The position numbers and the translations under genes were made by a program. From a virus (Duplodnaviria; Heunggongvirae; Uroviricota; Caudoviricetes), in the IMG/VR virus record IMGVR_UViG_2778261223_000007, positions 12,132 through 76,131 of that record: a DNA stretch of 64,000 nucleotides; one strand, given 5' to 3'. Of the stretch, positions 1,954 through 61,427 are shown piece by piece. The notes beneath the pieces were generated by a model. The model saw only the letters and a program-made list of their open reading frames with translations. It had not been told where the DNA came from and did no database searches. Each line of letters begins with the position of its first letter. Within the stretch, counting starts at the first letter, position 1.

Positions 1954-2328
1954 ATGCTTTATGAAATAGACGCAAGACTTCAAACGAATGAGAGCGGTGT
2001 CATTATTGCAGAAGGAAGTTCCGCAGCATGGATGGCCCGACTTGACGAGTGGCTACGAACCCCTGAAGGGAGTGTTTATGGTTTACCCTCTTGGGGGAAT
2101 CCAATGGAAGAATTTAAGCATGAACCATTCGGCTCTGAAACTTCGCACATAGTTGAAGTGGCTATTGAAGGGAGAATGATGAAAAAACTACGACAAGACT
2201 TGCCAGGTTTGGATGTGCAGGGGATTCGTTGCACATCAATTTCTGAAGATTCTTTATTAATTAGTTTTTATGCGAAAGGTGGGAGCATGGATATTGTTAT
2301 GCAGAAATCAAGTGGGGTGGGCGCGTGA
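1954..2328 (+). CDS. baseplate wedge protein (gp25/W-like)
   Basis: 124 aa, tightly packed in tail operon; segment EWLRTPEGSVYGLPSWGNPMEEFKHEP resembles gp25/GPW-type baseplate proteins (from memory). Confidence 0.4.
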   Translation: MLYEIDARLQTNESGVIIAEGSSAAWMARLDEWLRTPEGSVYGLPSWGNPMEEFKHEPFGSETSHIVEVAIEGRMMKKLRQDLPGLDVQGIRCTSISEDSLLISFYAKGGSMDIVMQKSSGVGA

Positions 2329-3755
2329 CGATTACAGAATTACTGGACAAATTTAACGCCAAGTTAAATGAAAACACATGGTGGTCACGATTTGTAAATA
2401 GTCAGTTTGTGCAGATGCACGCTATATTCGGATCACAGCTTATTTATATTGCCCGTACATTTGCAAGCCGCGGCCTCACTGAGGGACTTATTTCAACGGC
2501 TACGCGCCGCTCAAGTATTTTAGCGGTTGCTGAAGACCGTAGCTACGTAGGGCGATTTGTTAGTGCTTCATACGGAACAACGTCTATAACCAATAAAACT
2601 GATCGGGATATTACGTTACCAGCCGGGGCTGAATTGCTTGCCAATGACCAAACACCTTTGGCAATTATTAACAGTGTTGTAATTCCTGCTGGAGGAACTG
2701 TTTCTGGCGTAGAAACTAAACAGCATGAAGCTGTTAGCGTTACATTTGATATTGAGAAGGAAACTTTATTTCTGACATTGTTGCTTTCCAGAGAATTAAC
2801 AAAAGAAGTCTCTAGCCTGGATGTTTATGTTATTACAGATGGCGTAGAAGAAAAATGGACATATAACCCATTATTTAGAATGTCCAGAGACAAGAGTAAG
2901 CACTATTCATTGGCATATAAACCTACAGAACAACTTGGAGTCAAGTTTGGTGATGGTTCTATGGGTATGATGCCTCCAGCAGGCTGTCAGGTTCGAATCG
3001 ATGTTATGGCTAGCCTTGGCGACTATACTTTGGCTGAAGGACAAAAGTTAGAACCGGCTGGAAATATCGCTCAATATGTGGAGTCACTAGAGTTTAAAAC
3101 TGATTCGATCATTACCGGTGGTAGTGGTATGGAAACTACAGAAGAAACTCGAAATCGTGCTCAGTATTATGTTGCATACGATGAACAAGTGGTATGGGGC
3201 GGTGATTATCGCCAATTCATTCAGAATGTTGTTCATGGAACTTCATGGTTGAACGTTTGGGGCGAAGCGTTGCAAGAGAAAATAACTGGGTTTGACGTTC
3301 GAAACATCAACAAGATTTTCTTTTGCGGACATAAGCCAGGTGTAAGCCAGGCTCAGCTAAAATCAGAAATACTGAAAGCTCTAGAGAATGTTCCAAATGA
3401 GTTGAACAAGCGGTTTGAGTATGTAGATACAAATGAACAACCATTTACTATAATATTTACAGGTATTGCACGTAAAAATGTTCTGATAGACGACGCTCAA
3501 AATGCTATTAAAGCAGCGTTGGAAGAAAATTTTGGTCGTGATTCGTCATCATTCAGTTTATTACTACAGAGTGATGATGATTCTCAGCAATGTTATGCAC
3601 AGGTAAAAGTTAAAGATATTTGGCGAGTAATAGAGTCGCTGGATATGTTTCTCTCTTATGACATAACAATACAAAATATGAAAGATGCAGTTTACTTTAA
3701 TGACTTCATTTATCTTGACGTGAAATCTTCAACGTTCAGCATTTCTTACCCGTAA
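2325..3755 (+). CDS. baseplate J-like protein
   Basis: 476 aa, GTG start overlapping upstream stop (translational coupling); W-J-I-fibre gene order typical of myovirus baseplate modules. Confidence 0.4.
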   Translation: MTITELLDKFNAKLNENTWWSRFVNSQFVQMHAIFGSQLIYIARTFASRGLTEGLISTATRRSSILAVAEDRSYVGRFVSASYGTTSITNKTDRDITLPAGAELLANDQTPLAIINSVVIPAGGTVSGVETKQHEAVSVTFDIEKETLFLTLLLSRELTKEVSSLDVYVITDGVEEKWTYNPLFRMSRDKSKHYSLAYKPTEQLGVKFGDGSMGMMPPAGCQVRIDVMASLGDYTLAEGQKLEPAGNIAQYVESLEFKTDSIITGGSGMETTEETRNRAQYYVAYDEQVVWGGDYRQFIQNVVHGTSWLNVWGEALQEKITGFDVRNINKIFFCGHKPGVSQAQLKSEILKALENVPNELNKRFEYVDTNEQPFTIIFTGIARKNVLIDDAQNAIKAALEENFGRDSSSFSLLLQSDDDSQQCYAQVKVKDIWRVIESLDMFLSYDITIQNMKDAVYFNDFIYLDVKSSTFSISYP

Positions 3756-3765
3756 TGAGGTTAGC

Positions 3766-4611
3766 ATGAAAGATAATTGGCTTAAGGAACGATTAACTAA
3801 AGTAAAACAGGATTCACATCTCTGGAGTGCATTTATAGACGCTTTACAGGATGTCTGGAATGAGGCAGTAGAACCAATATTAACAAGAATAAGTAACAGA
3901 AAATCCTTCTTCACTATGGACAGTGAGGACATGGATGCCCGCATTGCTGAATACGGGCGTTTTTTCGTTATCACTGAAAAAGATAAGGCTCGTAGGCCAA
4001 TGCTGCTGGCACAACGTTTAGATGAAGTGCACTTTAAAGGCACTATCTTGCCAATTGAGCAGACATTCTGGCGTGAATTCGGTTGTATTCCTGTTAGTTG
4101 GGAACCGCTGTATGCACCTGTAAATATAGAAAAACACCCCTATGGTTCATATTTTGCGACCGAAATAGAAATACCTACGGCACAGGCTCAATTCGGTGAG
4201 TTCTTCCTGACATCAAGGGGGCTGGTCGTTGTTGATCAGAACAAGCTATATCGCTCATATGGAGAGCAGGATAAAGAAGCCGCTGTACAGAAATTGTTAT
4301 CTGACTTCGAAACAGTAATAGCCCCTTTATTGCCATTGCATATTGTTTTTGATGGCGTCTCGTTTCGGCTTAGTGCTGTATTCCCTGAAGTGGCAGAAAT
4401 ACTAAATTGCTTGTCTACGGATGTTTCGGTAATTGAAGGTGTTTATGTTACTGAGAGTATGGCTGATATGCTATCCCGTAGTGATACCTCCTGCCAGGTA
4501 GACAATATTTCTCTTAACGCCATACCGAACCGAACGGCAGAAAAGCAATTACATCTTGATGTAACCCCACTCGATGCGTGGCCTTTGGATTACCACCTTC
4601 AACCTGTTTAA
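3766..4611 (+). CDS. baseplate/tail protein (I-like)
   Basis: 281 aa ORF with ATG start, between J-like gene and fibre genes; hairpin follows the stop. Confidence 0.35.
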   Translation: MKDNWLKERLTKVKQDSHLWSAFIDALQDVWNEAVEPILTRISNRKSFFTMDSEDMDARIAEYGRFFVITEKDKARRPMLLAQRLDEVHFKGTILPIEQTFWREFGCIPVSWEPLYAPVNIEKHPYGSYFATEIEIPTAQAQFGEFFLTSRGLVVVDQNKLYRSYGEQDKEAAVQKLLSDFETVIAPLLPLHIVFDGVSFRLSAVFPEVAEILNCLSTDVSVIEGVYVTESMADMLSRSDTSCQVDNISLNAIPNRTAEKQLHLDVTPLDAWPLDYHLQPV

Positions 4612-4705
4612 TAATTCCTCCCCCGCATTTGGGGGAAGAACAACGGAAATCACAAACTGAGCATACTCTCCTTTGGTTCATTGCTTATGAAGGAGCTATG
4701 TTCGT

Positions 4706-5152
4706 ATGGCTGAAAATTTAAAGGCAAGAGATGGTAACCGCCTGTATAAGGCACAATTGCTTTCCTACTATTATTCACGCCGCGCTGAGTCGGCGATCGG
4801 CAAAGGTGCGCGTTTTGTTATCTCTAAGGCGTATTGGTGCAAATCTAGTCTGGTAACTGCTAATGGTGCAGGAGGCTGGAATATAGCGGACATTCCACTC
4901 GATTTTAAATTGAGTGACGCTCAACAGTTTGCTGTGTCCGATCTGATATTGTCCAGCGTGGATGGGATTATCACTATCAATGCAGCCTTCCCACAAGAAA
5001 GAATGCCGGATAACACGCCTTACGATTTTAACACGCTTGTGCTTGTTGATGCTGAGGAACGGGCTTTTGGTGTGCTTTGCACCCAGCAAGATACCCTCTA
5101 TAAAGGTAAACGTTACAGTATTCTCATGACAATCGAGCAAGTTGAGGGTTGA
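4706..5152 (+). CDS. tail-fibre-associated protein (P1 R-like position)
   Basis: 148 aa, stop overlaps start of tail-fibre gene (ATGA-type coupling). Confidence 0.35.
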   Translation: MAENLKARDGNRLYKAQLLSYYYSRRAESAIGKGARFVISKAYWCKSSLVTANGAGGWNIADIPLDFKLSDAQQFAVSDLILSSVDGIITINAAFPQERMPDNTPYDFNTLVLVDAEERAFGVLCTQQDTLYKGKRYSILMTIEQVEG

Positions 5153-8100
5153 TTATGGGGGCTGATAAAACGAACAACATAATGACACTATCCTCTGGTG
5201 TCTCACAGCCTTTGCTTGCTGATGTTCAATATTTCGAACTCTATAGTAGTTCGGCTCTTAACAGAAAACTTAAAAATATTGTTTTGCCTGGCTTTTACTG
5301 TGGATTTGAACCAGTTCCCGGCACAGGGTTGAGTGTTCGTATAACTTCTGAAAACTCAGAAGGTAAAGGGGCTGCTTCAGTAGATGTAAATAATGTTCAG
5401 ATATCCGTTCAGCAAATAGAAGATGTGACTGTCTCGGTAAAGGCTGGGGCTACCAACATTATTGTGCTGGAAGCCAATTTTGAACATGGTGTAAAAACGA
5501 CACAGGTAGATAGCGCATCTTCTGTCAGTGCTGCAAGAATTTACGCGCGTACGGACAATACTATTGGGCAGAATCAAATTGAATTATGTCGAGTTATCGT
5601 GCCTAACGGCGCAACGGCTGTGACTAAAGAAATGATTGTGCTTAAATACCGGGTTAACCGTGCTGTTGGTGTCGAATTCTCTAATGAAATAAGCAGTACA
5701 GAAGAAAGAAAAGCGGCTACACCTCTGGCTGTCAAAACTCTCCATGATTTGGTTGATACAAAAGCTCCGCTCGATAGTCCGCATCTGTCAGGTACGCCGA
5801 CTTCGCCGACACCTGAACCCGGTACAAACAACACACAGATCGCAAATGCGGCCTTTGTCTATGCTGCTATAAATGCGCTTATCAATGGTGCTCCGGGAAC
5901 GATGGACACGCTGAAAGAAATAGCGGCTGCGATCAATAACGACCCGAATTTCAGCACAACTATCAACAATGCCCTGGCTCTTAAAGCTCCTTTGGCAAGC
6001 CCGGCGTTCACAGGTACGCCGACAGCACCTACGGCCTCACAAGGCACAAATAGCACGCAGATTGCAAATACAGCCTTTGTTAAGGCAGCTATAACGGCAC
6101 TTATCAACGGTGCGCCTGGCACACTGGATACGCTGAAAGAAATAGCGGCTGCGATCAATAACGACCCGAATTTCAGCACAACTATCAACAATGCCCTGGC
6201 TCTCAAAGCGCCTTTGGCAAGCCCTGCATTAACGGGTGTCCCTACTGCGCCGACCGCCGCACAGGGCACAAATAATACGCAGATTGCTACGACCGCTTAT
6301 GTAAGAGCTGCCATATCCGCATTGGTTGGTTCATCACCAGAAGCTCTTGATACCCTGAATGAGCTTGCCGCAGCACTTGGCAATGACCCGAACTTTGCGA
6401 CAACAATGACAAATGCGCTGGCAGGCAAACAGCCTCTGGATGCAACTTTAACCGCGCTCGCTGGCCTTGCGACTGGTGCAAACAAACTGCCTTATTTCAC
6501 CGGTAAGGATACGGTAGCGCAGACTGATTTAACGTCAGTCGGTCGCGATATTCTGGCTAAAACAAGCACACTGGCCGTTATCCAATACCTTGGTTTAAGA
6601 GAACTCGGTACCAGTGGTGAAAAGATCCCCCTGTTGAGTACGGCTAACACATGGAGTGCGCGCCAGACTTTCAATGGCGGGATCACCGGGGCGCTGACAG
6701 GGAACGCCGACACCGCGACGAAATTGAAAACAGCCATAAACATTAATGGCGTCAGGTTCGATGGTTCGGCTGACATTAATATCAATACTCTGGTATCGCG
6801 TGGTCGCGTAACGGCTCTGGGGGCGAATGCACAGGGGACATCCGGGATTCAGCTGTATGAGGCATACAACAATGGCTATCCTTCCCCCTATGGCAATGTG
6901 CTTCACCTTAAAGGTGCCACCGCTGCTGGCGAAGGTGAATTATTCATTGGCTGGAGTGGCTCGAGCGGTGACCATGCGCCCGTACATATCCGTTCGCGGC
7001 GTGATACTGATTCTGCCAACTGGTCTGAATGGGCACAGGTCTATACGTCAAAAGATTCAGTTCCCGGCGTTAATGCCAAAGGGAATCAGGATACCTCTGG
7101 TAATGCGGCTACAGCGACCAAATTGCAGACGGCGTGTACTATCAACGGTGTCTCGTTTGATGGTTCTAAAAACATTGAGCTAACGGCGGAAGATTTAAAT
7201 CTTGAGCAAACCGTAGAATTAGCCGCAGGAGCATTGCAGAAAAACCAGAACGGTGCAGATATTCCGAATAAAGATAAATTCATACAAAACACAGGGGCCT
7301 GTCGTGCATTTAGCGGTCAGACTGATATCGATGGTTCACAAGGTGAATGGTCGACAGTTGCATTTATCTCGTGGCTGGAGAATAACGGAGCTTTCCGACA
7401 TCCATACTGGATGTGTAAAGGGTCATGGTCCTATGCCAGAAACAGGGTTATTACGGATACCGGTTGTGGAAATATCTGCCTTGCCGGAGCCGTGATTGAG
7501 GTTATGGGAACCCGCGGCGCAATGACCATACGCGTTACCACGCCGAGCACGTCCAGCGGTGGCGGAATCACTAACGCTCAATTCACTTATATTAATCATG
7601 GTGATGCTTACGCTCCTGGCTGGCGACGAGACTACAACACGAAAAACCAGCAGCCTGCATTTGCTTTAGGGCAAACAGGACGCAGGGTCGCAAATGATAA
7701 AGCTGTTGGCTGGAACTGGAATAGCGGCGTTTATGATGCAGATATCAGTGGCGCATCGACATTAATCCTCCACTTTAATATGAATGCGGGGAGTTGCCCT
7801 GCTGTACAGTTCCGCGTGAATTACAGAAATGGCGGTATCTTTTATCGTTCAGCGCGTGATGGTTATGGCTTTGAAGCTAACTGGTCAGAGTTTTACACCA
7901 CAACACGCAAACCCTCTGCGGGAGATGTTGGTGCATATACGCAGGCAGAATGTAACTCAAGGTTTATTACAGGTATTCGCCTTGGCGGTCTGTCATCTGT
8001 TAAGACATGGAATGGTCCTGGCTGGTCTGACAGGTCAGGTTATGTCGTTACTGGTTCAGTTAACGGAAACCGTGATGAATTAATTGATACAACTCAGGCA

Positions 8101-8154
8101 AGGCCAATTCAGTATTGCATTAATGGAACGTGGTATAACGCGGGGAGTATTTAA
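5149..8154 (+). CDS. tail fibre protein S (constant part 5149..6590 plus variable part Sv in current orientation)
   Basis: 1001 aa; three tandem 74-aa repeats (NNDPNFSTTINNALALKAPLASP...) typical of phage fibres; the cix crossover site lies inside the gene at 6578..6603; followed by tail-fibre assembly gene. Confidence 0.85.
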   Translation: MIMGADKTNNIMTLSSGVSQPLLADVQYFELYSSSALNRKLKNIVLPGFYCGFEPVPGTGLSVRITSENSEGKGAASVDVNNVQISVQQIEDVTVSVKAGATNIIVLEANFEHGVKTTQVDSASSVSAARIYARTDNTIGQNQIELCRVIVPNGATAVTKEMIVLKYRVNRAVGVEFSNEISSTEERKAATPLAVKTLHDLVDTKAPLDSPHLSGTPTSPTPEPGTNNTQIANAAFVYAAINALINGAPGTMDTLKEIAAAINNDPNFSTTINNALALKAPLASPAFTGTPTAPTASQGTNSTQIANTAFVKAAITALINGAPGTLDTLKEIAAAINNDPNFSTTINNALALKAPLASPALTGVPTAPTAAQGTNNTQIATTAYVRAAISALVGSSPEALDTLNELAAALGNDPNFATTMTNALAGKQPLDATLTALAGLATGANKLPYFTGKDTVAQTDLTSVGRDILAKTSTLAVIQYLGLRELGTSGEKIPLLSTANTWSARQTFNGGITGALTGNADTATKLKTAININGVRFDGSADININTLVSRGRVTALGANAQGTSGIQLYEAYNNGYPSPYGNVLHLKGATAAGEGELFIGWSGSSGDHAPVHIRSRRDTDSANWSEWAQVYTSKDSVPGVNAKGNQDTSGNAATATKLQTACTINGVSFDGSKNIELTAEDLNLEQTVELAAGALQKNQNGADIPNKDKFIQNTGACRAFSGQTDIDGSQGEWSTVAFISWLENNGAFRHPYWMCKGSWSYARNRVITDTGCGNICLAGAVIEVMGTRGAMTIRVTTPSTSSGGGITNAQFTYINHGDAYAPGWRRDYNTKNQQPAFALGQTGRRVANDKAVGWNWNSGVYDADISGASTLILHFNMNAGSCPAVQFRVNYRNGGIFYRSARDGYGFEANWSEFYTTTRKPSAGDVGAYTQAECNSRFITGIRLGGLSSVKTWNGPGWSDRSGYVVTGSVNGNRDELIDTTQARPIQYCINGTWYNAGSI
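5761..6426 (+). repeat. three tandem copies of a 222-bp (74-codon) unit inside tail fibre gene S
   Basis: Copies start at 5761, 5983 and 6205; copies 1 and 2 share long identical nucleotide stretches, copy 3 is diverged. Confidence 0.85.
6578..6603. other. cix-like crossover site (left): TTATCCAATACC-TT-GGTTTAAGAGAA
   Basis: 26-bp site of Gin/Hin/Cin type inside the fibre gene at the constant/variable junction; core dinucleotide TT matches the right site in inverted orientation. Confidence 0.7.
6592..6767. repeat. inverted repeat, left arm (~176 bp) at the inner side of cixL
   Basis: Reverse complement of 10679..10854 with only a few mismatches; encodes the shared first ~60 residues of Sv and Sv'. 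Confidence 0.8.
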
Positions 8155-8156
8155 TT

Positions 8157-8690
8157 ATGATGCACTTAAAAAATATTACTGCTGGCAACCCTAAAACAAA
8201 AGAGCAATACCAGCTAACAAAGCAATTTAACATCAAATGGCTTTATTCAGATGATGGAAAAAACTGGTATGAGGAACAAAAGAATTTCCAGCCAGACACT
8301 TTGAAAATGGTCTATGACCATAACGGCGTTATTATTTGTATTGAAAAGGATGTTTCAGCAATTAATCCGGAAGGCGCAAGCGTCGTTGAATTACCTGATA
8401 TTACAGCAAATCGCCGGGCTGATATTTCGGGTAAATGGATGTTCAAAGATGGCGTAGTGATAAAGCGAACTTATACCGAGGAGGAACAGAGGCAGCAGGC
8501 AGAGAATGAAAAGCAAAGCCTGTTGCAACTTGTCAGGGATAAAACCCAGCTATGGGACTCACAGCTACGGCTGGGTATCATTTCCGACGAGAATAAACAA
8601 AAATTAACCGAGTGGATGCTCTATGCGCAGAAGGTCGAATCCACAGACACCTCCAGCCTGCCAGTAACGTTTCCAGAACAACCAGAATGA
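8157..8690 (+). CDS. tail fibre assembly protein U
   Basis: 177 aa; N-terminus [22 protein letters not shown] is the classic Tfa/U-type start; immediately after the fibre gene. Confidence 0.8.
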   Translation: MMHLKNITAGNPKTKEQYQLTKQFNIKWLYSDDGKNWYEEQKNFQPDTLKMVYDHNGVIICIEKDVSAINPEGASVVELPDITANRRADISGKWMFKDGVVIKRTYTEEEQRQQAENEKQSLLQLVRDKTQLWDSQLRLGIISDENKQKLTEWMLYAQKVESTDTSSLPVTFPEQPE

Positions 8691-8694
8691 AACA

Positions 8695-8720
8695 AGGCCC
8701 GCTATCGGGCCTTAATTTTT
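8695..8720. terminator. bidirectional rho-independent terminator between convergent U and U'
   Basis: Hairpin AGGCCCG-CTAT-CGGGCCT followed by TAATTTTT. Confidence 0.6.
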
Positions 8721-9249
8721 ATTCAGGCTTTTGTGGCCATTCAGGATTTGCCGTATCCACACGGCTGACCAGAACACTATAGCGTTCCCATGACTCCAGT
8801 CGTGCGCGTTCCTCATCCGTCGCCATATTCAGCCTGACAGCGCGTTCCAGTGGCTGAATAACGTTTTCTGCTTCGGAAAGTAACGCGGCCTTTTGTGATT
8901 CGGCCTGTTGTTGTTGCTCGTCTGCCGTATAAATCCGTTTAACCACAGCTCCGTCCTTAAACATCCACTTCCCTGAATCATCGGCACGACGATTGGCTGT
9001 TATATCTGGAATCTCAACGACGCTAAAGCCTTCGGGATTAAGCGTTGAGGCATCTTTGGTTATGGCAACAATAATATTATTTTCGTCGTATACAATCTTT
9101 ATGGTGTCGTCCTGAAAGTTATTTACTTCTTCATACCAGTTTTTACCGTCTTCGGACCATAACCAGATAACATCAAAATTCTTTGTTAGCTGATATTGTT
9201 CTTTCGTTTTAGGATTTCCAGACTTAATATTTTTTAAATGCTGCATCAT
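8719..9249 (-). CDS. alternative tail fibre assembly protein U'
   Basis: 176 aa paralog of U on the opposite strand ([25 protein letters not shown]...), convergent with U inside the invertible segment. Confidence 0.8.
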
Positions 9250-10854
9250 TTACACCTGTGCGACGTTATACCATGTGCCATTGATGTATTTTTGTATTGG
9301 CCTGAAGATGGCTTCATCATCGCCATCTACTTCACCAATGATTCTTAATCCGGTAATTGCGTGTCCGGCTTTTTCATAACGACCACCACGCGCCATCAAT
9401 TGAACAACACGTGTGCCAAGTCGGACATCTCTCACATAGCGTGAGTCAAAATTGCCATAATTGCCGGGAATAACTTGCGCACCACAAAGCCAGTTACCGT
9501 TATTATCCATGTACGCCTGACCATCGGTGCCATTGGCTGTCCTTGAGTTATTAATCATGTAGATGCCAAATTGCTTGTTCCCCAGTCCACCTATCATGAA
9601 CTTTCGGTCGGCGTGATTCTGGCGAAGTAACGCCTGAGCGCTATCAGTGTTAACTATATTTTTCCCAAAGATAGCGTTGTTATCGCGCATCTGAATCCAC
9701 ATACCATTACTGCTGTTAATAGCAAAACGGTCTGAAAGTGTCTCCCCTGAAACATTAAGACCACGTCCCATCGAAACAGCGCCAGTAGCGTTATTAATCC
9801 ATAATGGCCTTAATCCGTTATAAGTCCCCATGTTGTCACCGGAGTTTGTCAACATGAAGTATGTATTTGAACCATCATTACGAATAAAGAATCCGTAATT
9901 ACCATAAGCAATACGTAGGCCGTTTGCTGATTTTGATATGACTTCGCCATTTACAATGGCATTGACAAGAACATACAAAGCATCCCATTTAAGATTCATC
10001 AGGTCTTTTGTTGTGGTACTTTGTTTGCTTCTCCATTTGAAATATTCATTGCCGTTGTCGCCTGTCTCAAACCACATGTATGAATCAGTATCGCTGTCGG
10101 CATCATTTTTAAAACCAATCTTCGCCCAGTCAGTATTCCGAATCCAGGCAAGGATTGAGTCGTTTTCAAAAGTAAGTCCACCGGACAAGGTATCGCCTGT
10201 CTTTTGAACCGCGTTATCAGCCTTGTTTACCGTTTCCTGTAGATTTAAATCTTCCGCCGTTAGCTCAATATTTTTAGAACCGTCAAACGAGACGCCGTTG
10301 ATAGTACATGCTATCTGCAATTTGGTCGCTGTAGCCGCATTACCAGAGGTGTCCTGATTCCCTTTAGCATTGACGCCGGGAACTGAATCTTTTGACGTAT
10401 AGATCTGTGCCCACTCGGACCATGCCGCAGCAGTGCTATCTCTTTTGGATCGAATGAAAGCAGGTGCATGAGCGCCATTTGTGCCACTCCAGCCAATGAA
10501 TAACTCACCTTCGCCAGCAGCGGTGGCACCTTTAAGGTGAAGCACATTGCCATAGGGGGAAGGGTAGCCATTGTTGTATGCCTCATACATCTGCAATCCA
10601 GTAGCAGCACCTTGCGTTGTACCGGTAAGCGCAGTAACGCGTCCTCTAGACGTAATTGTTGGTATCGAAATGTTCGTAGAACCATCGAACCTGACGCCAT
10701 TAATGTTTATGGCTGTTTTTAATTTCGTCGCGGTATCGGCGTTCCCTGTCAGCGCCCCGGTGATCCCGCCGTTGAAAGTCTGGCGTGCACTCCACGTGTT
10801 AGCCGTGCTCAACAGGGGGATCTTTTCACCGCTGGTACCGAGTTCTCTTAAACC
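9250..10854 (-). CDS. alternative tail fibre variable cassette Sv' (expressed only after inversion, no own promoter)
   Basis: Minus-strand frame is open from cixR to 9250; its first ~60 codons are identical to residues following the crossover point in S (STANTWSARQTFNGGITGALTGNADTATKLK...). Confidence 0.75.
   Translation of the reverse strand, partial: GLRELGTSGEKIPLLSTANTWSARQTFNGGITGALTGNADTATKLKTAININGVRFDGSTNISIPTITSRGRVTALTGTTQGAATGLQMYEAYNNGYPSPYGNVLHLKGATAAGEGELFIGWSGTNGAHAPAFIRSKRDSTAAAWSEWAQIYTSKDSVPGVNAKGNQDTSGNAATATKLQIACTINGVSFDGSKNIELTAEDLNLQETVNKADNAVQKTGDTLSGGLTFENDSILAWIRNTDWAKIGFKNDADSDTDSYMWFETGDNGNEYFKWRSKQSTTTKDLMNLKWDALYVLVNAIVNGEVISKSANGLRIAYGNYGFFIRNDGSNTYFMLTNSGDNMGTYNGLRPLWINNATGAVSMGRGLNVSGETLSDRFAINSSNGMWIQMRDNNAIFGKNIVNTDSAQALLRQNHADRKFMIGGLGNKQFGIYMINNSRTANGTDGQAYMDNNGNWLCGAQVIPGNYGNFDSRYVRDVRLGTRVVQLMARGGRYEKAGHAITGLRIIGEVDGDDEAIFRPIQKYINGTWYNVAQV
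10679..10854. repeat. inverted repeat, right arm (~176 bp)
   Basis: See left arm. Confidence 0.8.
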
Positions 10855-10868
10855 AAGGTTTAGGATTG
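10843..10868. other. cix-like crossover site (right): TTCTCTTAAACC-AA-GGTTTAGGATTG
   Basis: Inverted copy of the left site next to the 3' end of cin; resembles hix/gix consensus. Confidence 0.7.
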
Positions 10869-11420
10869 AAATGATGATGCCGGAAACTTCTTATAAAGCG
10901 TGGAAACAGCCACATCATAGATGATTGCAACCTGCTTACGAGGGATGCCCTTCTCCAGCAATCGCCGCATTTGCTGCCATGTTTCTTCTTGGTATTTAGG
11001 CCGACGCCCACCTATACGACCTTCTGCGCGAGCTGCATCAAGTCCAGCGCGTGTACGTTCAATGATAAGCTCACGTTCCATTTCTGCCAGCGCACCCATT
11101 ACGTGAAAGAAAAAGCGCCCCATTGGTGTACTGGTGTCGATGGAGTCAGTGAGACTCCGGAAGTTAATGCCTCTGTCACGCAGCTCTTCCACCAGCACAA
11201 CCAAGTGACGCATGCTGCGCCCAAGGCGATCTAACTTCCATACGACCAGGGTGTCACCTCTGGAAAGAATACGCAGAACCTTTTTTAACCCTGGGCGTTC
11301 AGCCTTTTTGCCGCTCGCCTTATCCTCAAAAATTAGCTCACATCCTGCGCTTTCAAGGGCGTTTCGTTGTAAAGCGGTGTTTTGGTCATTAGTTGATACG
11401 CGAATGTATCCAATAAGCAT
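10860..11420 (-). CDS. cin: serine DNA invertase (Cin/Gin/Hin/Pin family)
   Basis: 186 aa; MLIGYIRVSTNDQNT...VVWKLDRLGRSMRHL...SIDTSTPMGRFFFHVMGALAEMERELIIERT is near-identical in pattern to Pin/Cin invertases; adjacent to cixR. Confidence 0.9.
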   Translation of the reverse strand: MLIGYIRVSTNDQNTALQRNALESAGCELIFEDKASGKKAERPGLKKVLRILSRGDTLVVWKLDRLGRSMRHLVVLVEELRDRGINFRSLTDSIDTSTPMGRFFFHVMGALAEMERELIIERTRAGLDAARAEGRIGGRRPKYQEETWQQMRRLLEKGIPRKQVAIIYDVAVSTLYKKFPASSFQS

Positions 11421-11525
11421 ATGTCCCCCCTTGTATGTTAAGGGGGGAGATTCTAGAAGATGTCCTGTAAGGAAATAACAAACTGACTAAGTTAGTGGCG
11501 CATTAGATGTTATTTCTGGAGGGGT

Positions 11526-31455: not shown

Positions 31456-31777
31456 AAATAACAGGTTGGGTAAATGCCATGCGATTTACCCTCCTTGTTG
31501 ATTAAGGTCGCTCTTTACTCTAAAAGCAAATCCGACCTGTTGCATATAGACCATCCTTGAGTAGTATCTCTCTTGTTTTACAAATCTAACGTTGTTGTTA
31601 TTATTTCGCATATTTACTATCAATTGGTGTGTTAGAAAAATAGCGCGAAAGAGAAGGCGTCGCAGTGAATATTCTGAAACATCCCCACATGCCGCAGCTC
31701 TTAGAGAACTGGAGAAAAACCCAGATCTAATCAAAAGGAACCATGAGCATTACGAGCAGGTTCGCGTCCTGGACTGG

Positions 31778-32100: not shown

Positions 32101-32301
32101 TTGCGTTTACATAACGTGGCAGAACTTATCCCTGCAGGAACTAATGCTATCGCTCGTCGTCGCTCATGGCAGCAGGCTCTATGTATTGAGATCTCGAAAC
32201 GTATCAATGGAAGTTTTGAAGCTCGCAATATTGTTACTGGCGATAAGGTTCACATAACCCCGGAAAGTGCAAGCGCTGATGATTGGGAGTTTGTACATTG
32301 A
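32101..32301 (+). CDS. small protein with DUF2829-like C-terminal motif
   Basis: 66 aa; AIARRRSW ... SASADDWEFVH resembles the R..W / D.W pattern of the other DUF2829-like ORFs; non-ATG start. Confidence 0.3.
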   Translation: MRLHNVAELIPAGTNAIARRRSWQQALCIEISKRINGSFEARNIVTGDKVHITPESASADDWEFVH

Positions 32302-36126: not shown

Positions 36127-36561
36127 ATGTTCGGTAAATTTTTCGGTAAGAAAGTCGCTTCAGCAAAAGTAGAGCTGAAAAGGGTTGAGAATCGCGATCT
36201 GATGGAGGCCATTATCGGTGGCTGTTTGTTGGTGTCTGCCGCAGATGGTGAAATCGAAAAGGAAGAAACAGCGAAACTTGATCAGCTTGTCCGCTCTAAT
36301 CCTCGCTTAAGTCATTTTGGCAACGAAATTACCGCAACAATCACCCGTTTTACTGAGCAACTGGAAGCTGGTTTCCGTGTTGGTCGCATGAATATCCTTC
36401 GCGAAATTGAAGATATCAAAAATGATCCAAAAGAAGCGGAAGAAGTATTCGTTAACATGCTGACGATTGCAGAAGCGGACGGTGAAATCGAGCCAGCAGA
36501 ACACAAAGTACTGGAAGAAGTAGGCCGTCGTTTGGGCCTTCGTGTGGAAGATTATCTGTAA
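36127..36561 (+). CDS. tciA: TerB-like protein (tellurite-resistance/colicin-immunity family, P1 TciA-like)
   Basis: 144 aa; two repeats of the (A/E)ADGEIE motif (SAADGEIEKEE ... AEADGEIEPAE) typical of TerB; embedded among the tRNAs as in P1. Confidence 0.7.
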   Translation: MFGKFFGKKVASAKVELKRVENRDLMEAIIGGCLLVSAADGEIEKEETAKLDQLVRSNPRLSHFGNEITATITRFTEQLEAGFRVGRMNILREIEDIKNDPKEAEEVFVNMLTIAEADGEIEPAEHKVLEEVGRRLGLRVEDYL

Positions 36562-54973: not shown

Positions 54974-55251
54974 TGTGGTGGCTCCTGCTTTTCTGCCTTT
55001 AATACCATGCGAGAACCATCATCCAGCTCCCAATTAATTTCACCGCCTTCAGCCATGACTAGATGCCAAACGAGTTGTGCGGCCTCGTTGGTTACATCAC
55101 GACCGCGATCATTGCCGACACGACGTTTTGTTCCATCCCCTAAGTCACGCATTTTTGCCAACACGATGGTTTTTGATAGCGGTGAAAAACCAAGCTGTAG
55201 TCGTGCGGTATTACTCACTGTTTGCCTCCTTTGCGAAGCTGTTCCGCCCAT
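54970..55251 (-). CDS. hypothetical protein (start uncertain)
   Basis: 93 aa open frame; no clear RBS. Confidence 0.25.
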   Translation of the reverse strand: MGGTASQRRQTVSNTARLQLGFSPLSKTIVLAKMRDLGDGTKRRVGNDRGRDVTNEAAQLVWHLVMAEGGEINWELDDGSRMVLKAEKQEPPQ

Positions 55252-55703
55252 TCTTCAAGGGATTTCTCCGCATATTCACCGGACAGGCCATCAATCGGGT
55301 GCGGTTCATTAGCCAACTCTTCTTTCGCTGACAGAATCATGCGCGTAACGTCGAAAACTTCACGTAAAGACTTATTGATAAATCCGTGGTTGAAAGCAGC
55401 AGCAAGACGGCTTGCGGTATAGTTAATCCCCTCGTTGCGAGCCGCCGCACGAATTTCAGCCAGAAAAGCATCGGTGGCTGGAGTTTCGCTGTGGTGCAGG
55501 GCATCGTTGATAATCATTGCAGCAACTCCGGCCTGACCTGCATCCGTGACCGACACATGCTCAAGAGTTACAGCCATTGCATGTTTCAGCCCAGCATTCT
55601 CCGCCGCCAGCGCAGCACACGCTTTCTCAAGTCGGGAAATTTCCGTTACATACTCAGCGTTACGCTCTGCCAGTTGTGCGGGCGTTAAACCTTCAGACTT
55701 CAT
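55215..55703 (-). CDS. hypothetical protein
   Basis: 162 aa. Confidence 0.4.
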   Translation of the reverse strand: MKSEGLTPAQLAERNAEYVTEISRLEKACAALAAENAGLKHAMAVTLEHVSVTDAGQAGVAAMIINDALHHSETPATDAFLAEIRAAARNEGINYTASRLAAAFNHGFINKSLREVFDVTRMILSAKEELANEPHPIDGLSGEYAEKSLEEWAEQLRKGGKQ

Positions 55704-61134: not shown

Positions 61135-61427
61135 TTCATTAACTCCATACCTTACCATCTTAGCCGCGAGCGCGGTCCCTAAAACCATTAACTTCACTGC
61201 ACCGTCCTTCATGCAATCAAAATGACTTTTATGTTATAAAAATAATCAGCCAAATCAACATGATTTAGGCCAAATTTCTGTCAAAAAATAAAATCCACAA
61301 AAAGTGGTTGACACTATTTTGGAAATCACAAACTGCACATAATCCATCGCGCTAACGGCTCCCGTTGAAGGTTCTTTTGACGATTAACTTTCAGCCGAAG
61401 CGCGGTAGGGAGTCATAACGCCAAAGC

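Follow-up and report, generated by a model that had tools for sequence, protein, structure and literature searches.

Tail-fibre genes and the two cassettes

The locus lies in a stretch of viral DNA of 64,000 nucleotides, referred to below as the window, and begins with a homologue of the tail-fibre attachment and assembly gene R (4706..5152, plus strand). This ORF, which gave no Pfam match, corresponds to D6_36, annotated in phage D6 as 'similar to P1 gene R'; the R-S-U late operon opens with it, outside the invertible segment. The S gene comes next as an ORF of 999 aa on the same strand (5155..8154), and its ATG at 5155 aligns with the start of D6 S. The constant N-terminal part of S, Sc (5155..6590, plus strand), contains a Phage_fiber_2 repeat and ends at the crossover point.

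A tandem repeat with a unit of 222 bp was detected by TRF within Sc (5824-6287; 2.1 copies, 84% matches), and the comparison with D6 S revealed one extra unit, equivalent to 74 aa, in the window. This is a copy-number variation in the fibre shaft, and comparable 222-bp elements, named b1 and b2, are annotated in P1.

Beyond the crossover point, Sc is continued in frame by the expressed variable part (6591..8154, plus strand), which is Sv by position and a homologue of S' of P1, D6 and Mu. It shares 99.7% DNA identity with D6 S', and this end of the fibre matches the structure of the Mu tail fibre S' (PDB 8ju3, E=1.4e-193). The gene behind it, U by position (8157..8690, plus strand), encodes the expressed tail-fibre assembly chaperone (Caudo_TAP, E=6e-37), with identities of 99.4% to D6 U', 95.5% to P1 U' and 58% to P1 U. 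On the opposite strand, the silent cassette consists of a second chaperone gene, U' by position (8719..9249, minus strand; Caudo_TAP, E=2e-37), whose product shows an identity of 100% with D6 U and of 95.5% with P1 U, and of the second variable fibre part, Sv' by position (9250..10855, minus strand). The latter is a homologue of S of P1, D6 and Mu, has a Gp34_trimer domain, and matches the structure of the Mu tail fibre S (PDB 5yvq, E=5.6e-195); it carries no start codon, and its reading frame is not that of cin. The two Caudo_TAP chaperones are 57% identical to one another.

The initial annotation had described a 4.27-kb segment carrying Sv-U and, inverted, U'-Sv', and precisely this gene order was found, with 4265 bp from one crossover point to the other, measured between the cores. 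It had also stated that the current orientation expresses Sv/U, which is right for the positions of the genes but not for their type, as the identity of the chaperone to D6 U' and the match of the fibre to 8ju3 place the expressed cassette, by homology, in the S'/U' type. The silent cassette would likewise be of the S/U type, and the names Sv and U are positional only. Being the homologue of Sv'/U' of P1 and D6, the expressed cassette would put the element, again by homology, in the state named C(-) in P1, whereas the P1 reference record is in the C(+) state. Sc forms an open fusion with either variable part, of 999 aa as the sequence stands and of 1013 aa after inversion in silico, and the 1013-aa S equals D6 S plus the 74 aa.

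Where U and U' converge, a bidirectional hairpin terminator is predicted at 8693..8714, with a GC-rich stem and T runs on both strands. The match of this region to phage D108 (query 2132-5142, equal to window positions 7231-10241) includes annotated 'Terminator' features.

With respect to transcription of the operon, the late-promoter box that P1 has of its own, AAGTTACTT-N4-TANNNT, was absent upstream of R and of lydA in the window, and its count over the whole window was at chance level. Because this box is missing upstream of R, the promoter of S can be placed only tentatively, at a candidate 16-mer (4645-4660). The 16-mer, GGAAAT[C/A]ACAAACTG[A/C], occurs three times in the window against a chance mean of 0.17, always on the plus strand: at 4645-4660 upstream of the R-S-U operon, at 11471-11486 upstream of the holin gene that resembles lydA, and at 61321-61336, about 160 nt upstream of a mat homologue. 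All three sites are found also in D6, and in the P1 record the late promoters LPs and LPdar are annotated at places corresponding to the 16-mers of R and lydA. The 16-mer may be a D6-type late-promoter (Lpa) box.

Crossover sites, Cin invertase and repeat arms

The segment is delimited by two cix sites in inverted orientation, each of 12+2+12 bp with half-sites around a 2-bp core. The Sc-proximal site (6578..6603) reads TTATCCAATACC-TT-GGTTTAAGAGAA, with its core TT at 6590-6591, and is identical to P1 cixR in 26 of 26 positions. The cin-proximal site (10843..10868) reads TTCTCTTAAACC-AA-GGTTTAGGATTG, with its core AA at 10855-10856, is identical to P1 cixL in all 26 positions as well, and overlaps the stop codon of cin. 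Both sites, with their central TT/AA, are thus exactly where the initial annotation had put them. Searches with an exact and a degenerate pattern, with a chance expectation of ~0.01, returned no cix-like site other than these two in the 64 kb, where further sites would have pointed to multiple inversions as in the Min system of p15B.

The gene for the serine DNA invertase, cin (10860..11420, minus strand), is located directly outside the right cix site and encodes a protein of 186 aa with a Resolvase domain (PF00239, E=5e-51) and an HTH_7 domain (PF02796, E=3e-18). The gene carries no lesion, the N-terminal serine motif (MLIGYIRVST...) is intact, the active-site Ser of such invertases being located near residue 9-10, and the product is identical to D6 Cin in 186 of 186 residues and to P1 Cin in 182 of 186 (97.8%). 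Within the 5' part of cin, a homologue of the sis enhancer (11331..11402, minus strand) agrees with the P1 enhancer (31678-31749) in 68 of 72 positions and occupies the corresponding place within the gene, and by analogy with P1 we infer that it would act as the recombinational enhancer.

Just inside the cores lie the arms of a mosaic inverted repeat, the left one at 6592..7203 and the right one at 10240..10854. Inverted repeats of 176 bp had been reported in the initial annotation; these are present, as the 176 bp inward from each end show 96% identity between the arms, with 7 mismatches, but they form just the outermost block of a mosaic repeat of ~610 bp that reaches about 7203 on the left and 10240 on the right. 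In the left arm, conserved blocks (6850-6965 and 7011-7203) alternate with diverged ones (6768-6849 and 6966-7010). Each of the 7 mismatches falls on a third codon position and is synonymous, so that the protein is the same in both orientations over the ~59 residues that follow the junction, and to that extent the earlier claim that both orientations encode the same junction residues was borne out. The arms are mosaic in D6 too, whereas those of P1 are 100% identical over ~550 bp and those of a P1-like plasmid of E. fergusonii over ~400 bp.

Orientation of the segment and position of the breakpoints

When the window was compared with D6, the segment and its two flanks matched opposite D6 strands, the segment running the other way round than in the GenBank record of D6. 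After inversion of the window at the cores, a single HSP (6011-43003) aligned it colinearly with D6. As the identity between the window and D6 is ~99% and not 100%, this flip is deduced from two related elements and not from a single clone; moreover, when repeats of 0.6 kb enclose a segment, assemblers may orient it arbitrarily. The initial annotation had called for both orientations to be found, and in silico they were: in addition to the opposite states of the window and D6, junction probes picked out 59 PLSDB plasmids with the junction as it stands in the window and 37 with its inverted form.

The difference in orientation could still be an old event or an assembly choice, in an element whose parts look intact and in which inversion has ceased. 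The divergence of the arms in the D6 lineage, when set against P1 arms without a single difference, fits such a loss, since it points to little recent homogenisation between the arms. However, recombination by Cin requires only the cix sites and the enhancer, without long repeats, as is established for P1 and Mu, and here cin is free of lesions and its product is the same as that of D6, the two cix sites have the very sequences that function in P1, and conservation extends to the enhancer. Furthermore, opposite orientations are already seen between the window and D6 at an overall identity of ~99%. A loss of inversion is therefore regarded as very improbable, and an active switch is preferred.

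The positions of the exchanges could be followed through the few bases that distinguish the arms and the outer half-sites. Between the window and D6, all 7 arm-specific differences, the nearest of them 24 nt from the cix centre, travelled with the segment, so that a comparison of the left arm with D6 gives 1 mismatch for the cin-side arm versus 7 for the Sc-side arm. In contrast, the differences in the outer half-sites of cix, at 6584, 6586, 10860 and 10862, remained with the flanks. The exchanges therefore fall within 6587-6614 and 10832-10859, two intervals of 28 bp each that are centred on the cix cores.

As a further pair, two plasmids of E. fergusonii (AP028829 and AP028849, 122,823 bp each) with cix sequences as in the window were compared over a stretch of 11 kb, which gave 2266 mismatches between the records as deposited and 0 after in-silico inversion of one of them at the cix cores. 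This pair proves inversion, but it was rejected as proof of crossover at cix, because the identity of its arms over ~400 bp makes an exchange at cix indistinguishable from one elsewhere in the repeat.

Alternatively, the flip might be the work of RecA-dependent homologous recombination, with the inverted repeats of ~0.6 kb as its substrates, and not of Cin at cix. This would be compatible with the existence of such long repeats and with the E. fergusonii pair, but exchanges would then be expected anywhere along ~600 bp, whereas between the window and D6 they are confined to the cix-centred intervals, with the arm differences moved and the half-site differences left in place, and this explanation is accordingly given the least credence. 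The confinement of both breakpoints indicates instead that the flip between the window and D6 was a site-specific inversion, and the comparison serves as a clean in-silico demonstration of inversion breakpoints at the cix cores.

The junction between Sc and cix is present also in IMG/VR contigs of other P1-like elements, with various cassettes. In the P1-like IMG/VR loci L007, L012, L017, L018, L024 and L025, the stored stretch stops no more than ~130 bp past this junction, which could be due to breaks of short-read assemblies at the inverted repeats or to mixed orientations.

A probable host-range switch of the P1 family

The DNA identity to the D6 genome is ~99% in a whole-window alignment that covers nearly all of the 64 kb, and judging from this the window is a D6-like, P1-family plasmid prophage. 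Within it, the region 6578-10868 most probably represents an intact Cin/C-segment host-range switch (probability of about 0.96 in our estimate). All the features by which a Din-family invertase switch and the tail-fibre cassette system of P1 and Mu can be recognised in a sequence were found, and no sequence speaking against this reading was noted. The initial annotation of a complete Cin-type switch is upheld, as no component is missing or damaged, and the records of D6 and P1 label the segment likewise. The identification is thus correct and the switch already known, with nothing novel in it; switches of the P1 type operated by Cin have been textbook biology since the 1980s.

The invertible tail-fibre segment of D6 was reportedly described by Gilcrease and Casjens in 2018. 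In the D6 record (MF356679), cixL, cixR, S, U, U', S' and a DNA invertase are labelled in the corresponding segment, and the parts common to the annotations of D6 and P1 are cin, cixL, S', U', U, S, cixR, Sc and R. From cixL (32139-32158) to cixR (36404-36423), the D6 segment is 99.7% identical to that of the window, with 12 differences in 4287 bp. Both elements have identical Cin proteins, the mosaic inverted repeat and the gene set S/U/U'/S', and in the switch region they differ only in the orientation of the segment, in the 12 base changes within it and in the extra 222-bp unit of Sc. Complete E. coli genomes and the plasmids of PLSDB offered a closest match to the region of ~93-95% identity, and the one match to a GTDB representative was a different P1-like element.

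The likeness to the C segment of P1 extends to the architecture, the identical cix sites, Cin, the enhancer and the DNA of the segment (~91% identity). Unlike the window, P1 has repeat arms without mosaicism, as described above, and features of P1 also include lydC between cin and lydA. The central ~3 kb of the segment (7231-10241) is 92-93% identical to the S-U-U'-S' region of the G segment of Mu and D108, in agreement with the matches of the two fibre tips to the Mu S and S' structures. However, the invertase in the window is Cin, whereas Mu has Gin, which acts at gix sites, with inverted repeats of 34 bp only and a different constant part of S.

The R-S-U operon runs into the segment from the left, because Sc lies outside it, and Cin is encoded directly beyond its right end. 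By analogy with P1, Mu and the Gin and Hin systems, the switch would operate as follows. Dimers of Cin at the two cix sites, together with host Fis at the enhancer in cin, would assemble into an invertasome, in which cleavage at the central 2-bp core followed by strand rotation would invert the 4265 bp between 6591 and 10855. Each inversion would join Sc in frame to one of the two C-terminal fibre parts, with the matching chaperone gene behind it, and the bidirectional terminator between U and U' would stop transcription in either orientation. In the present state, the tip expressed is the one like Mu S', and the S/U-type cassette is silent.

A general description of the P1 system is available (PMC6906374). 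The S form of P1 is reported to bind E. coli K-12 LPS at its outer core, and the S' form is associated with O-antigen binding and with adsorption to Shigella flexneri and to E. coli O3 (PMC10999674 and PMC13172314, with the work cited there). By the same analogy, the two fibre forms of the present element would differ in adsorption and host range. For annotation, the element can be labelled as a D6-like plasmid prophage with the Cin switch intact and at present in the S'/U' state, and this state is relevant to predicting the hosts to which its virions would adsorb.

A tentative and rather doubtful proposal is that the arms of the D6 lineage, unlike those of P1, are no longer kept identical, as suggested by the 7 synonymous changes in the first 176 bp and by two later blocks that diverged with indels, so that an inversion, for which Cin needs cix and not long repeats, would swap ~150 residues of a partly different shaft together with the receptor-binding tip. 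In this proposal, the S' (O-antigen-type) state and the extra 74-aa shaft repeat could be signs of an adaptation to some host unlike K-12.

Outside the switch region, a stretch of ~470 bp (54975-55446) has no alignment to D6, in which the counterpart measures ~1.17 kb (78013-79187); this looks like a small difference in gene content between the two elements.
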